Source of the DNA: Candidatus Eiseniibacteriota bacterium
Lineage (GTDB): Bacteria > Eisenbacteria > RBG-16-71-46
Assembly: GCA_031370785.1 (NCBI GenBank)
Contig: JANMQY010000063.1
Location: 1 to 64,000 of the forward strand
Reading direction: 5' to 3'
Length of the DNA stretch: 64,000 bases
The position numbers are program-made. Numbering within the stretch: position 1 is the first letter of the stretch; each line of letters starts with the position of its first letter. Positions 52,759 through 58,700 of this stretch are shown here, in pieces.

Positions 52759-55700
52759 GGTGATGATCGCGATGGCACTGGCGTGCAAGCCCGCGATCCT
52801 GATCGCGGACGAGCCCACCACCGCGCTCGACGTCACCATCCAGGCACAGATCCTCGAGCTGCTGAAGGAGCTGCAGCGCGACTTCGGCATGGCGGTGATC
52901 CTGATCACGCATGATCTGGGAGTGGTCGCCGAGACCGCGGATCGGGTCGCGGTCATGTACGCCGGTCAGCTGGTCGAATCGTGCGACGTGCGCGCCGCCT
53001 TCGCGCGCACGCGGCATCCCTACACTGCTGGGCTTCTGGCGTCGCTGCCGCGGCTCGGCGAGAAACACGACACGCTGCGCGTGATCCCCGGAACCGTTCC
53101 CGATCCTTCGAATTTCCCGGCGGGCTGCCGGTTCCATCCGCGCTGTCCGGTGGTGGAGGAGCGCTGCACCCGGCTCGAGCCCGCGCTCGAGACTCCCGAG
53201 CCCGATCATCTGTCGCGCTGCTGGCGGACGCATGAGATCGCCGCCGGCACGCTCGACCCCACGCCAGCCGTCGAGGCGCCGCGTGGGTGATGTCCTGCTC
53301 GAGGTCCGCGATCTGAAGAAGCACTTCCCGATCCGGCGCGGACTGTTCGGGCGCACGGCGGGGCAGGTGAAGGCGGTCGACGGCGTTTCGTTCTCGGTCG
53401 GCGCCGGGGAGGTGCTGGGGCTGGTGGGCGAGAGCGGCTGCGGCAAGACCACCACTGGACGCTGCATCCTGCGCCTGATCGAGCCGACTTCCGGCAGCGT
53501 GAGGTTCGAAGGCCGCGAGGTGACGACGCTTCCCGCGCGCGAGCTGCGCGCGCTGCGGCGCGAAATGCAGATCGTGTTCCAGGATCCCTACTCGAGCCTG
53601 AACCCGCGTCTCACCGTGGGTAGCATGCTGACCGAGGCGCTCACCATCCACCGCCTCGCCCGTGGCGCCGCGGCGCGCGCGCGCGTCGCGGAACTGCTCA
53701 CACTGGTCGGGCTTTCGCCGGACCACGCGCGACGCTATCCGCACGAATTCTCGGGCGGTCAACGCCAGCGCATCGGCGTGGCTCGCGCGCTGGCGGTGCG
53801 GCCCAGGCTGATCGTGGCCGACGAGCCGGTCTCCGCGCTCGACGTCTCGATCCAGGCGCAGATCATCAACTTGCTGCGCGATCTCCAGAAGCGCCTCGGG
53901 CTGACCTATCTTTTCGTCGCCCACGATCTCTCGGTGGTCGAGCACATCAGCGACCGGGTTGCGGTCATGTACCTGGGCCGGATCGTCGAGCTGGCCGGGA
54001 GCGCCGAGCTCTACCGCCAGCCTCTGCATCCCTACACCCAGTCGCTGCTGTCGGCGATTCCCCAGCCCAATCCGGAGCGCCGCCGCCGCCGCATGGTGCT
54101 CAAGGGCGACGTGCCGAGCCCGGCGCATCCGCCTCTGGGGTGCCACTTTCACCCGCGTTGCTTCATGGCTCAGCCGAAGTGCGCGGTCGACGAGCCGCTG
54201 CTGCGCGAAGTGCGCCCGGGCCACTGGGCGGCGTGCCATTTCGCCGAGCAGCTCATGAGTCCAGCCCAGGTCCCCGCGGGCGATCGATAGTTCTTCGGGC
54301 TCCACGCCTGTCGAACCCAGACTCATTGGGGCGGATTGCCCCAGACGCCCCATCCCACGGGGCCAATCCCCCCGTCAGGCGCCCTCGCGACCCTCCACGT
54401 GGGCAAAAAACCGCCACCGTGGCGCAACGGCCACGCCACTCAATCCTGCCTTCGGCAATCACTTCCGCTGCCCACCTCACCCGCCGGGTCAGGCAGGTGC
54501 CGGGTGGCACCCAGCTTGCGGAAGGGTAGAGGTGTCGTCGCGGCTCGGCGCCCTGGAGAGGGGCCCGTGTCGCGGCCCAAGCCTCGAAAAAATCGAATGC
54601 GGTTCCCTGTGTGACGCGTGCTAGCCGGCTGCCGGGCTGATCCCCCTATCGCGAGCGAAGGAGTCTTGCGGCCAGGTTCACGGTCAAGGCGGGGAACCAT
54701 CTTCGGGCCCCGAGCCTGCGGCTCCCTGCATCCACGCACGACATTGCCGCCGCGATCGGGGCCCATGAATCTTCAGGGCGCACATCCCTCGCGCCGCGCG
54801 ACGATCTGCTCGCGAGCACAGCGCCAGATCTCTTCGTCGCGTTCGCCCGGTCCGCTGTTGAGCACCACGCCTACCATCGCGCGTGCCCTCGCGACCTCCA
54901 TGCCCAATGCCGAGCGCTGGTGCGTTGACCCACATCGGCATCCCTGCTAGCGTGCCCCTCTCGATGCACGGCAAGTGACGTGCTCGCAAGCACCTTGAGG
55001 AGGACGCATCACACCGGTGACGCGTGAGGCGTTGGGGATGGTCGAGACCCGCGGGTGGGTCGCCGCAGTCGAGGCGGCGGACGCGATGTGCAAGACCGCG
55101 AGGGTCCACCTGACGCGCTACGAAGTCACCCCGGGCGCCCTGGTCACGATTCTGGTGCGCGGCTCGCTGGGCGACGTCGAGGCGGCGGTCGAGGCAGGGG
55201 CCCGCGCGGCGGCACGCGTGGGAGAAATGGTCGTCCGCCATGTCATTCCGTCACCCGATCCACAGCTGGAAGAACCCATCACGGGCCTGGGCCGATGACG
55301 AGCCCGGCTCGCATTCAACTTTCGACGTGAGGAGCACATCCCATGAATGAAGAAGCTCTGGGCCTGATCGAGACGCGCGGGTTCGTGGCCATGGTCGAAG
55401 CCTCCGACGCCATGGTCAAGGCCGCTCGCGTCACGCTGGTACATTACGAGAAGATCGGCGCCGGCTACGTCACCACCGTTGTGCGCGGCGACGTCGCTGC
55501 GGTGCGTGCCGCGACCGAGGCCGGTGCGGCTGCGGCCGCCAAGGTCGGTGAGGTGGTCTCGGTGCACGTAATTCCGCGCCCGCACGCGATGCTCGAGGAG
55601 GCGCTTCCCATCCGCCGTCTCGAGCCCGCGTCCAAGAAGTAACATCGCGTGATCCTGGCGCAGGTGGTCGGCACAGTCGTCTCCACGCGCAAGGACAAGG

Positions 55701-58700
55701 GACTTCTCGGGCTCAAGCTGTTGCTCGCCCGCGAAGTCGACGGCGCATTCAAGCCTACCGGCAACTTCGTGGTGGCCGCGGATGCGGTCGGAGCGGGAGT
55801 GGACGAGCTGGTGCTGATCGCGGCGGGTTCTTCGGCCCGCCTCACCGAGGTCTCTCGCGACCGGCCGGTGGACGCCGTGATCTGCGGCATCGTGGACACG
55901 GTCGAGATGAACGGGCGCGACGTGTACCTGAAGGGAGCCGGCGCGAAGGGCTGAGGCCCTGAACCCCGGAACTCCGCTCATGGCCCTCGACCCCAGAAGC
56001 ATCGAGTCGATCGTCGCAGAGGTTCTCGAGCGGCTGGATAGCGGCGGAAAGCCAGCCGGCTCCGAGGCCGGCGCGCCGCTCGGTGTGCACCGCGATCTCG
56101 ACACCGCGGTCAAGGCGGCTCAAGCCGCCTTCGAGGCCTACGACAAGGTCCCGCTCAGCACGCGCTACGCGGTGGTCGCCGCGATGCGCGACACGCTGCG
56201 CGGCAGCTGGCGAGCCCTCGCCGAGCTTGCGGTCGAAGAGACCGGGCTGGGGCGGGTCGAGGACAAGATCACCAAGAACCGGATCGTCACCGAGCTCACG
56301 CCCGGCCCCGAGGATCTCGAGCCGCGCGCGTGGACCGGGGATCACGGCCTGACCCTCGAGGAGCGCGCTCCCTACGGAGTGATCTCGGTGATCACTCCGG
56401 TGACCAATCCGAGCGAGACTGTGATCAACAACGGGATCTCGATGGTCTCGGGCGGCAATACCGTGGTGCTGTGCCCGCATCCGAACGCGCGCAAGGTTTC
56501 GATCCTGACCGTGGACCTGATGAACCGCGCCGCGCGCCGCGCTGGCGCCCCCGCGCCGCTGCTCCATTCGGTGGCCGAGCCCAGCATCGAGGTCGCGCAG
56601 CAGATGCTGCGCTATCCCGGCATCCGGCTCAACGTCGTCACCGGCGGCCCGGCGGTGGTGAAGGAGGCGCTCAATGCCGGAAAGAAGGCGATCACCGCGG
56701 GTCCGGGCAATCCGCCGTCGATCGTGGACGAGACCGCGGATATTGAGAAGGCCGCGCGTGACCTGATCGCGGGCGCCTCGCTCGACAACAACGTCATCTG
56801 CACCGACGAGAAGGAAGTGATTGCGGTCGCGATCATCGCCGACCGGCTCAAGGAGGTGTTCTCGCGCGCGGACTCGGGCGCGATCGTGCTCGCCCCGCAT
56901 CAGACCGAGCAGCTGCGTCGGGTGGTGCTCGAGAAGGAGCAGGGCCCGCGCCAGTACGCGATCATCAACCGCAAGTACGTGGGGAAGAACATCGACATGA
57001 TCCTGCGGGAGGCCGGCATCCCGTGCGATCCCTCGAAGCGGCTGGCCGTCTGCGAGGTCGACAACGACCACCCGTTCGTGTGGACCGAGATGATGATGCC
57101 GATCCTGCCCATGACCCGGGTGCGCAACGTCGATGAGGCGATCGACTACGCGGTGCTGGTCGAGCACGGTTTCCGCCACACCGCCTCCATGCACTCGCGC
57201 AACGTCGACAAGCTGTCGAAGATGGCGCGGGCGTGCAACTGCTCGATCTTCGTCAAGAACGGTCCGAACTTCGCGGGTCTCGGCTGGGGCGGGGAAGGCC
57301 CGACCAGCTTCACCATCGCCAGCCCGACCGGCGAGGGCATGACCTCGGCGCGCAGCTTCACACGGATCCGGCGCTGCACGCTGGTCGACAACTTTCGGAT
57401 CGTGTAATGGCGCATGTCGCGGTTGCCGCGCTCGAGACCAGCAGCATCGCCCAGGGTGTGGTGGCCAGCGACGCCATGGTCAAGACCGCGAACGTCGAGC
57501 TGATCGAAGCCTGTGCGGTCTCCCCGGGGAAATTCTGGGTGCTGATCGGGGGCGAGGTCGCCTCCGTGCGCGCGGCGTTCCAGCGTGGCGTCGACACTGC
57601 GGCCGAAACCCTGCTCGACTCGCTGCTGATTCCGCAGCTGCACGAGGGCGTGCTTGCCGCGTTGCGCGGGGTCGCATCCGCGGAGGATCACGACGCGCTC
57701 GGAGTGATCGAGACCCTGACCGCCGCGGCAGCGATCGTGGCCGCCGACCGTGCCGCCAAGGCGGCGAGCGTGACCCTGCGCGACCTGCGCCTCGCCAACG
57801 GGCTCGGGGGCAAGGGCGTGCTGTATCTGTCCGGCGACGTGAGCAACGTCGAGGCTGCGGTGGCCGCGGGCCGCGCCGAGGCGCTCAGCCGTGGCCTGCT
57901 GACTCGCGCAGTGGTAATCCCGCGCCTTCACGCCCAGCTCAAGGCGCGGGTGCTCTGATGCACTTCGCGCGCGTGATCGGCACGGTGGTCTGCACCGAGC
58001 GCGTCCCGTCGTGGCGCGGCCAGCGCATGCTGCTGCTCGAGCCGACCGACGCCGCGGGGAAGGCCTCCGGGCGCTCGCTGGTCGCGATCGACCTGGTCTC
58101 GGCCGCCCCCGGCCAGCGGGTTTTCTACGTGCGTGGGCGCGAGGCCGCGAACGCGCTTCCCGACGCCGAGAATCCCGCGGACGCCGCGATCGTCGGCATC
58201 GTCGATCATGCCCGTCTCGAACCGGAGAAGGCCTGAGCCATGTTCCTCGCGCGGGTCGTTGGCGAGGTGGTGGCCACCATCAAGCATCGCGATCTCGATG
58301 CGCGCGCGCTGCTGCTCGTGCAGCCGGTCACTCCGACCGGGGAGCCCACTGGGAAGATCGCGATCGCGGTCGATGCGGCGCAGGCCGGTATCGGAGATCG
58401 GGTGCTGGTTGCCGATGAGGGCAACGGTGCGGCGCAGGTCCTCCGTCGTGCGCGCGGGACGGTGCGCACCGTGATCGTCGGAGTCGTGGACGAGGTGAGC
58501 GTCGGGAGCTGAGCGCCTCACGAATGGAACAACCGTTCCTAAGCACGCGCGCCGCATGCTAGATTGACCGCGACTTGGGATGGTGAGCAGTTGGGAACGG
58601 AGGGTGGGTTCGCGCGGCACGGACGACTGTGCGCGCCGGCGAAGTGCCTAGCAGCCCCACAGCCGATTCAAGGAGGAGAGCGATGACCAAGGCGGATCTC

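Follow-up and report, generated by a model that had tools for sequence, protein, structure and literature searches.

The shell locus analysed here, from Candidatus Eiseniibacteriota bacterium, belongs by gene order and content to MIC7, a microcompartment type catalogued in 2021 without a signature enzyme or function (Sutter et al. 2021, PMC8217296, Supplementary Data 1 and 2); in our literature search, no paper ascribed a function to it. Judging from sequence, we propose with a probability of about 0.85 that MIC7 is a dispersed sugar-phosphate (SPU) compartment, in which 2-deoxyribose-5-phosphate (DR5P) would be cleaved to G3P and acetaldehyde, the latter being then converted to acetyl-CoA. 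This reading follows from distal enzymes that carry encapsulation tags, from intact operons and intermediate arrangements in relatives, from the clade formed by the aldehyde dehydrogenases and from the joint loss of shell and cargo. The genes, their catalytic residues, the synteny series and the co-occurrence pattern belong to the same observed basis.

The window, that is, the whole 64,000-nt stretch of contig JANMQY010000063.1 (assembly GCA_031370785.1) in which positions are counted, holds on its forward strand a shell locus of seven genes: two BMC-H, three BMC-P, one BMC-Ts and one acylating aldehyde dehydrogenase (AldDH) (Table 1). The genome-wide survey's note had placed this locus at 55038..58512; the locus stands, but its first gene starts at a GTG at 55017, with a Pfam match beginning at 55029. 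No enzyme other than AldDH was found inside the shell block, in agreement with the survey's description of a shell/AldDH locus devoid of a signature enzyme. The best PDB match of AldDH was 5jfl (E 8e-130); its catalytic motif holds Cys274 and an N-terminal encapsulation helix lies at about residues 5-20 (tag score 14.2). The pore loop of the first BMC-H is unlike that of the second when compared across the loci of family 1, the family of the source genome, and the second shares 60-89% identity with the corresponding hexamer in both intact and split loci. The shell block now adjoins HU-rnr. The conserved element upstream of it shows 73-88% identity in family-1 loci, including the shell-less genomes G037 and G094, and has a second copy on contig C124; it is not specific to the compartment, and we rejected it as a BMC-specific regulator. 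A promoter and terminator scan gave no signal above chance.

Table 1. Features of the shell locus and of the distal loci (C-numbers denote other contigs of the assembly).
Feature	Contig	Position	Strand	Description
Non-coding element	JANMQY010000063.1	54602..54774	.	Conserved upstream of shell locus; no Rfam match
BMC-H 1	JANMQY010000063.1	55017..55298	+	Divergent hexamer, equivalent to the specialised MIC7 BMC-H; PF00936, E 2.7e-26
BMC-H 2	JANMQY010000063.1	55343..55642	+	Standard hexamer, 99 aa; PF00936, E 2.9e-29
BMC-P 1	JANMQY010000063.1	55649..55954	+	Vertex pentamer, 101 aa; PF03319, E 4.2e-28
AldDH	JANMQY010000063.1	55980..57407	+	CoA-acylating, PduP/EutE-like; PRK15398, 630 bits (cut-off 403)
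BMC-Ts	JANMQY010000063.1	57407..57958	+	PduT-like; two PF00936 domains
BMC-P 2	JANMQY010000063.1	57958..58236	+	PF03319, E 5.5e-25
BMC-P 3	JANMQY010000063.1	58240..58512	+	PF03319, E 1.7e-21
deoB	C84	103811-104974		deo operon, first gene
cdd	C84	104971-105369		deo operon, second gene
deoC	C84	105366-106307		deo operon, third gene
pdp/deoA	C84	106313-107671		deo operon, fourth gene
Asp-rpiB	C32	35117-35680		Asp102 opposite catalytic Cys of solved RpiBs
BMC-Tdp	C83	44823-45461	-	Lone satellite gene

The survey had labelled the compartment as HO-like (Haliangium ochraceum type), an assignment that we reject: HO compartments have a single BMC-H together with two Tdp (BMC-Tdp) and in many cases a class II aldolase (PF00596, 29 of 41 catalogued loci), whereas the source genome encodes two BMC-H and one Tdp and lacks PF00596. 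The likeness to HO lies in the AldDH-only main locus and in the satellite Tdp, a gene that the survey had correctly located on C83 and whose best PDB match is HO-5816 (E 2e-78). MIC7 also has a satellite Tdp, near the CsoS1D clade, and the catalogue's description of the main-locus HO Tdp groups the HO-5816 type with CsoS1D. In MIC7, as here, AldDH is the sole enzyme of the main locus (PMC8217296), a standard and a specialised BMC-H accompany a BMC-P triplet, and the Ts lacks the pore Cys, with no PduS (four of six catalogued loci); in our BMC-Ts the pore Cys of PduT is replaced by Ser (alignment to 3pac), and the genome gave no match to RnfC_N, used as a proxy for PduS. The N-tagged AldDH of MIC7 is nearest to SPU3, as is ours in a tree that took in no HO, SPU5 or SPU7 rows; the AldDH typical of HO stands closest to SPU5/SPU7. 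MIC7 is listed from Eisenbacteria, the phylum of the source genome. The catalogued locus of RBG_16_71_46 reads H104, H99, P101, a gap, Ts182, P100 and P89; the corresponding lengths here are 93, 99, 101, AldDH, 183, 92 and 90. A cluster look-up returned no MIC7 accession. The difference from the catalogue entry is that a tagged DeoC and an RpiB with a Cys-to-Asp change (Asp-RpiB) were located distally and followed across relatives.

These two enzymes connect the locus to the SPU and SPU3 compartments (Axen 2014, PMC4207490; Sutter 2021; Dwyer, Sutter and Kerfeld 2024, PMC11585597), with which it shares a tagged DERA with an intact Asp/Lys/Lys triad, a tagged Cys-to-Asp RPI, an N-tagged AldDH, the BMC-P triplet and a Cys-less Ts. 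The order P-AldDH-Ts-P-P is that of SPU3, and PTAC is likewise missing where Tdp is present. However, DERA and RPI are encoded in the shell locus in SPU, while here they lie on C84 and C32, the parts occupying four unlinked sites; furthermore, there is an extra BMC-H with respect to SPU3, and the satellite Tdp is of a clade other than that of the SPU3-operon (CcmP-clade) Tdp.

The contigs, tags and gene neighbours of both distal enzymes, and the Asp of RpiB, agreed with what the survey had reported. The C84 DeoC is the only one of the genome; it has about 95 extra N-terminal residues and retains Asp180, Lys243 and Lys272, each conserved in all 43 DeoC (PF01791) that were aligned. Its operon, with GTGA and ATGA stop/start overlaps, holds the same four translationally coupled enzymes as an ordinary deo operon (deoB-cdd-deoC-pdp), from which it differs in the DeoC tag and SPU-type extension, seen only where a shell exists. 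Asp-RpiB, encoded about 70 bp upstream of the adenosine deaminase gene (add), keeps the DHxG, YP, His100 and RHxxR residues, invariant in 43/43 aligned sequences; a second, untagged RpiB adjoins glyA. The Cys-to-Asp change had been taken as diagnostic of SPU RPI; it is typical of it but not exclusive, as LacA has the same change (PMC11585597). Our own count in family 1 agreed on the cdd neighbour of DeoC and on the Asp substitution: among 31 DeoC loci, our own included, all had the tag and cdd upstream and 30 had pdp downstream, and Asp occurred in 30/30 RpiB loci, with add adjacent in 29. Many shell-positive genomes carry RpiB only in the Asp form. These data support the distal DeoC and Asp-RpiB as SPU-type cargo of this shell.

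The survey had ranked the three tagged proteins first to third in the proteome with a partly circular profile. With an independent profile, trained on intact loci only, DeoC and Asp-RpiB indeed ranked 1st and 2nd among the 3520 frames lying close to a start codon, but AldDH was 4th; when frames were scanned anywhere, the three ranked only 4th, 5th and 16th of 3928. As these unrestricted ranks illustrate, amphipathic helices are common. A DeoC tag score of at least 8 was found in 62/71 shell-positive loci (the low score of G007 in this count is a parsing artefact) vs 1/25 in BMC-P-negative genomes. The Asp-RpiB tag is absent from fused loci and from some of family 10, and scores below 8 in 18 of 39 loci outside family 1; a scan filtered on the linker loses Asp-RpiB, whose linker is charged. 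Scores stayed below 5 for DeoB, Cdd, Pdp, Add, PunA, Udk and Tdk, and an N- and C-terminal tag scan for extra cargo revealed none convincing, the best C-terminal match being on C113.

How the parts may have become separated is suggested by the relatives. Five families (4, 5, 8, part of 10, and 13) keep an intact operon in SPU3 order, Asp-rpiB-deoC-Tdp-H-P-AldDH-Ts-P-P, an order also present in seven named loci of other phyla; among 11 relatives' regions fetched as a check, all had the block up to AldDH and nine the full Ts-P-P tail. The adjacency of rpiB and deoC, which the survey had noted in one family, was confirmed but extends, as adjacent or fused genes, to 10 families. Intermediate arrangements include cdd-Asp-rpiB-deoC-pdp (L247), cdd-Asp-rpiB-deoC-TBDR and a BMC-P 3 orthologue at the head of the nucleoside uptake operon udk-tdk-BMP-ABC(-punA), as its first gene in families 9 and 12. 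In the AldDH tree, the split loci make up a single clade (SH-aLRT 97) inside the SPU3-order loci, and our DeoC clusters with SPU DERAs from other phyla (support 88-92), all trees being quick searches. Monophyly of family-1 DeoC including the untagged G037 was not rejected (AU p 0.50), a test that does not separate deoC displacement from tag loss. The SPU3-operon Tdps form a clade (support 98) that does not include the satellite Tdp, and therefore more than a plain split into three parts was involved in the break-up.

The shell was present (BMC-P-positive) in 103 of the 151 genomes sampled from the phylum, and absent (BMC-P-negative) in 48; kin genomes are non-independent data points. Shell-positive family-1 genomes carry Asp-RpiB in 55/56 cases and DeoC in 52/56, whereas in shell-less relatives DeoC is untagged and Asp-RpiB absent. 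Of 30 loci parsed from BMC-P-negative genomes, two had Asp-RpiB, both in genomes (G097 and G065) that miss the adjoining rnr too, which suggests assembly gaps. Within family 1, two genomes are without the shell and Asp-rpiB in their syntenic slots: G094, where these slots are contiguous, and G037, which lacks Tdp, deoB and the DeoC tag as well. A deoB match was found in 62/103 BMC-P-positive vs 2/48 BMC-P-negative genomes; its absence from 41 shell-positive genomes counts against the proposal, as do the lack of both Tdp and PTAC in families 2 and 3 and the genome G088, whose MIC7-like shell and Tdp go with an untagged DeoC and no RpiB match. Across 44 genomes, 7 had PTAC only, 30 Tdp only, 7 neither and none both, a mutual exclusion that agrees with the pattern described for SPU.

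These results support a tie between the compartment and deoxynucleoside breakdown. The survey had argued for nucleoside breakdown from gene context; the deoxynucleoside part holds, but the deo-operon context is weakened as proof because cdd-deoC-pdp also occurs in shell-less genomes with an untagged DeoC. Likewise, the position of rpiB before adenosine deaminase was verified, but not as a link to the compartment: add is a housekeeping neighbour, present in 29/29 shell-less family-7 genomes and in 137/151 genomes whether or not they have the shell, and no add turned up in families 5 and 9, which have Asp-RpiB and the shell. We consequently rejected this adjacency as compartment-specific evidence. 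A relative's stretch was present in two metatranscriptome assemblies of one study; DNA carry-over is likely there, because cover was flat over genes and intergenic DNA and contigs reached 59 kb, and these data were left out of the evidence.

Other explanations have to be weighed against the dispersed SPU reading. That an HO-type compartment receives its aldehyde from elsewhere, for instance from a class II aldolase or an ethanolamine module, seems extremely improbable: a main locus with AldDH alone, as in HO type I, and the HO-5816-like Tdp would fit, as would G088 (94% complete), which combines a MIC7-like shell and Tdp with three PF00596 genes, an untagged DeoC and no RpiB match; nevertheless, neither PF00596 nor EutB occurs in the 100%-complete source genome, PF00596 is absent from G001 and G004 too, and the MIC7 layout is exact. 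It is also quite unlikely that the shell holds mainly AldDH as a general aldehyde trap, with DeoC largely cytosolic and the tags being relics or a means of loose clustering. Such a view would accommodate the impossibility of co-transcribing unlinked loci, the translational coupling of DeoC to cytosolic enzymes, the lack of cofactor-recycling enzymes and the shell kept by G088 without a tagged DeoC. It is opposed by the tags retained throughout family-1 DeoC loci and missing where the shell is missing, by the co-loss in G037 and G094, and by G040, where the deo-operon deoC copy is tagged and the copy linked to Asp-rpiB has lost its tag.

A further possibility, compatible with the dispersed SPU compartment but unlikely, is that it also takes ribose phosphate from purine ribonucleosides, Asp-RpiB being active downstream of adenosine deaminase, as the survey's link to that gene implied. 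The proximity of Asp-rpiB and add in families 1 and 2, the invariant residues and the genomes with only the Asp form speak for it, whereas the distribution of add, the negligible isomerase activity of the SPU6 RPI (PMC11585597) and the second RpiB beside glyA speak against it.

If the compartment is a dispersed SPU type, nucleosides would be taken up by the ABC system on C32, and untagged cytosolic Cdd, Pdp/PunA and DeoB would yield DR5P, which would enter a shell made of the seven window genes and the satellite Tdp. Encapsulated DeoC and AldDH would then carry the predicted flux to acetyl-CoA. No PTAC, alcohol dehydrogenase or PduS was found in the genome (a weak Fe-ADH match on C113 lies under the family cut-off), and therefore CoA and NAD(H) have to pass through the shell, for which a gated Tdp is the most plausible route. 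Asp-RpiB may be a co-packaged DeoC partner, probably serving as a scaffold with sugar-phosphate binding retained. Historically, an operon in SPU3 order would have lain beside a nucleoside-salvage cluster and then broken up, its shell block ending before HU-rnr, Asp-rpiB remaining near udk/add and deoC in the deo operon.

The SPU chemistry was already known, and a distal tagged DeoC had been proposed for some HO genomes; to these we add the distal pair of tagged DeoC and Asp-RpiB for MIC7, likely pointing to a role in the breakdown of the DNA sugar. This offers a testable substrate and core for a catalogued organelle type, together with a stepwise record of an organelle operon dissolving into housekeeping operons, its parts still linked by tags and co-loss. 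More tentatively, several orphan BMC types may be cryptic SPU organelles whose signature enzyme is an ordinary deoC in salvage operons; this would hold for MIC7 in most Eisenbacteria and perhaps for ACI (125 loci). In Acidobacteria, tagged deoC with Asp-rpiB lay away from the BMC-P triplet in 5/5 cases tested, and the triplet adjoined a class II aldolase, as in ACI, in 4/5. If this were true, surveys of shell neighbourhoods would miss deoC genes folded into salvage operons, and a genome-wide hunt for tagged deoC and Asp-rpiB would be a general approach to orphan types. Asp-RpiB, with its invariant phosphate-site residues, would be a DR5P-binding or ring-opening partner instead of a dead scaffold, and in these phyla the organelle would be firmly built into core deoxynucleoside catabolism.

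In the Candidatus Eiseniibacteriota genome studied here (G000; 3.44 Mb in 147 contigs, 100% complete), contig C45 carries seven same-strand genes encoding BMC-H, BMC-H, BMC-P, a CoA-acylating aldehyde dehydrogenase of the PduP/EutE kind (AldDH), BMC-T, BMC-P and BMC-P, flanked by an oligopeptide-type ABC operon and by HU-rnr. According to the locus tags and lengths in Supplementary Data 1 of PMC8217296, this is the gene order of MIC7, a microcompartment type catalogued without a signature enzyme. The genome-wide survey's note had labelled the compartment HO-like; this label was not borne out, since the order is that of MIC7 and the HO entries available from Supplementary Data 2 of the same paper differ from the locus on three points. 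Genome-wide, the only further BMC gene encodes the shell protein Tdp on contig C83, and neither a class II aldolase, PTAC, EutB nor an RnfC_N/PduS-like gene was found, nor any Fe-ADH above the cut-off. No paper that gives MIC7 a function turned up in a literature search, with subscription journals and two large supplements outside its scope.

Features in the window and in the DeoC locus
Feature	Location	Strand	Remarks
Membrane protein cluster	44042-47410		four genes; the first encodes a DUF6754 protein, the other three lack a Pfam match
Conserved non-coding element	54602-54774		second copy on contig C124; retained in the shell-less genomes G037 and G094; no Rfam match
Shell locus	55017-58512	+	seven genes
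DeoC extension	L009:10367-10660		CxxC motif after the tag

The candidate cargo enzymes are encoded elsewhere. The single DeoC (DERA) of the genome lies within deoB-cdd-deoC-pdp, where stops and starts overlap, and clusters with SPU DERAs in a quick tree. Part of its extension resembles the helix-strand unit at the C-terminus of the enzyme itself (score 56, against a shuffle maximum of 44), and the CxxC motif is present in most relatives, though not in all. The genome encodes two RpiB proteins: that on C73 lacks an extension and adjoins glyA, while that on C32 (RpiB*) has Asp102 in place of the catalytic Cys and its gene lies 5' of add. Farther out on C32 lie punA, tdk, udk and the genes of an ABC transporter that includes a BMP lipoprotein; its family and context suggest nucleoside transport. 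Among the three best named RpiB* relatives sharing the add context, two are labelled Ca. Eisenbacteria and one Verrucomicrobiia. As add was present in 137 of the 151 sampled genomes, with none detected in either family 5 or family 9, this adjacency is not compartment-specific, and the survey's use of it as evidence for the compartment had to be dropped.

The encapsulation tags of DeoC, RpiB* and AldDH are real. We built a profile from 50 helices of intact operons only, to which family 1, that of G000, and family 2 contributed none. With matches allowed at any position in 3928 likely coding frames of G000, obtained by rough gene calling, the three proteins ranked 4th, 5th and 16th, respectively; when only windows close to a start codon and within the initial third of the frame were counted (3520 frames), they ranked 1st, 2nd and 4th, the 3rd being presumably a trigger factor. 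The upstream salvage enzymes scored low. The tags proposed earlier were recovered by an independent profile, with weaker support than the earlier, partly circular one had implied.

Our phylum tallies of BMC-P, Tdp, deoB and add cover 151 sampled genomes, including the unpublished G015; BMC-P genes occurred in 103 of them and in none of the 29 from family 7. An intact rpiB*-deoC-Tdp-H-P-AldDH-(Ts-P-P) arrangement characterizes families 4, 5, 8, 10 (in part) and 13. It was seen in all 11 regions fetched to check it, some with RPI-DERA fusions, and seven named loci from other phyla have the same full order, fitting the SPU3 description in PMC8217296. In families 3, 6, 10, 15 and 18, rpiB*-deoC lies apart from the shell, often 3' of cdd (cdd-rpiB*-deoC-pdp in L247), and in families 1, 2, 9, 14 and 17 deoC is in the deo operon with rpiB* elsewhere. 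Family 12 has two deoC genes, and in G040 the deo-operon copy is tagged and the rpiB*-linked one is not. The third BMC-P of families 9 and 12 is the first gene of a udk-tdk-BMP-ABC operon; G036 has add-udk-punA after its intact operon. In a quick tree the AldDHs of split loci, together with that of the rearranged locus L285, form one clade (support 97) nested among SPU3-order loci. PTAC and Tdp were mutually exclusive (44 genomes); PTAC lies directly 5' of the shell block (L407-L412, G061) in families 9, 14 and 17, exactly the Tdp-less ones among PTAC-positive genomes. The shell block of G082 (L235) lies between two Tdp genes that belong to different clades, and a fused RPI-DERA is encoded elsewhere. 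The sole RpiB found in families 2, 4, 5, 8 and most of 10 was the Asp form, with no canonical RpiB found.

Of 48 BMC-P-negative genomes, 25 had a DeoC, with a scored tag in one; the DeoC of G097 is truncated at a contig end. These genomes gave 47 RpiB matches; among the 30 parsed, only those of G097 and G065 were of the Asp form, and the remaining 17 all scored in the canonical range. Because both genomes lack the rnr neighbour and G097 has Tdp, their missing shells are probably assembly gaps. In shell-positive genomes the parsed RpiB loci were of the Asp form in 30/30 cases in family 1 and 39/39 in other families, the choice of best-scoring loci favouring this form. The deoB gene tracked the shell in one direction, being found in 62/103 BMC-P-positive vs. 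2/48 BMC-P-negative genomes.

Two family-1 genomes are natural knock-outs. G094 (87% complete) lacks the shell and rpiB* from contiguous syntenic slots, and DeoC, deoB and Tdp were not found at that completeness. G037 (98% complete) has the syntenic slot without a shell and an untagged DeoC, and lacks deoB and Tdp; the gene 5' of its add is, by motif, presumably aquaporin-like. In both (L396, L397) the oppF-HU interval is filled by genes that we take, from motifs, to be S8-protease-like. The two were not sisters in an add tree of weak support. Counting against an SPU-type compartment, cdd-deoC-pdp also occurs without a shell, neither Tdp nor PTAC is present in families 2 and 3, and G088 has shell and Tdp with an untagged DeoC and no RpiB match. 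An SPU deoC may have replaced a housekeeping gene, or one lineage may have dropped the tag upon shell loss.

Outside the phylum, eleven Acidobacteriota loci (L256, L259, L262, L267, L270, L271, L279, L282, L283, L286 and L290) pair an Asp-form rpiB with a tagged deoC, sometimes 3' of deoB, and themselves contain no shell genes; all five genomes tested carry a BMC-P triplet elsewhere, adjoining a class II aldolase in four, like the ACI type. Bacteroidota loci L266, L280 and L305 contain RpiB*-like genes, with Asp seen in L266 and L305 and two lying 3' of alr; neither deoC nor shell genes were found nearby.

The compartment departs from a strict SPU definition in just two respects, where its genes lie and which clade its Tdp belongs to, the satellite Tdp (C83 type) and that of SPU3 operons being different paralogues in a quick tree. 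It is MIC7 in layout and most likely SPU3-like in working. In PMC11585597, DERA activity and a DERA-RPI complex are demonstrated only for a Chloroflexi SPU6 system; by analogy, both may be expected in G000. 2-Deoxyribose-5-phosphate would then be made in the cytosol and cleaved within the shell, where acetaldehyde would be captured, with CoA and NAD exchanged via Tdp.
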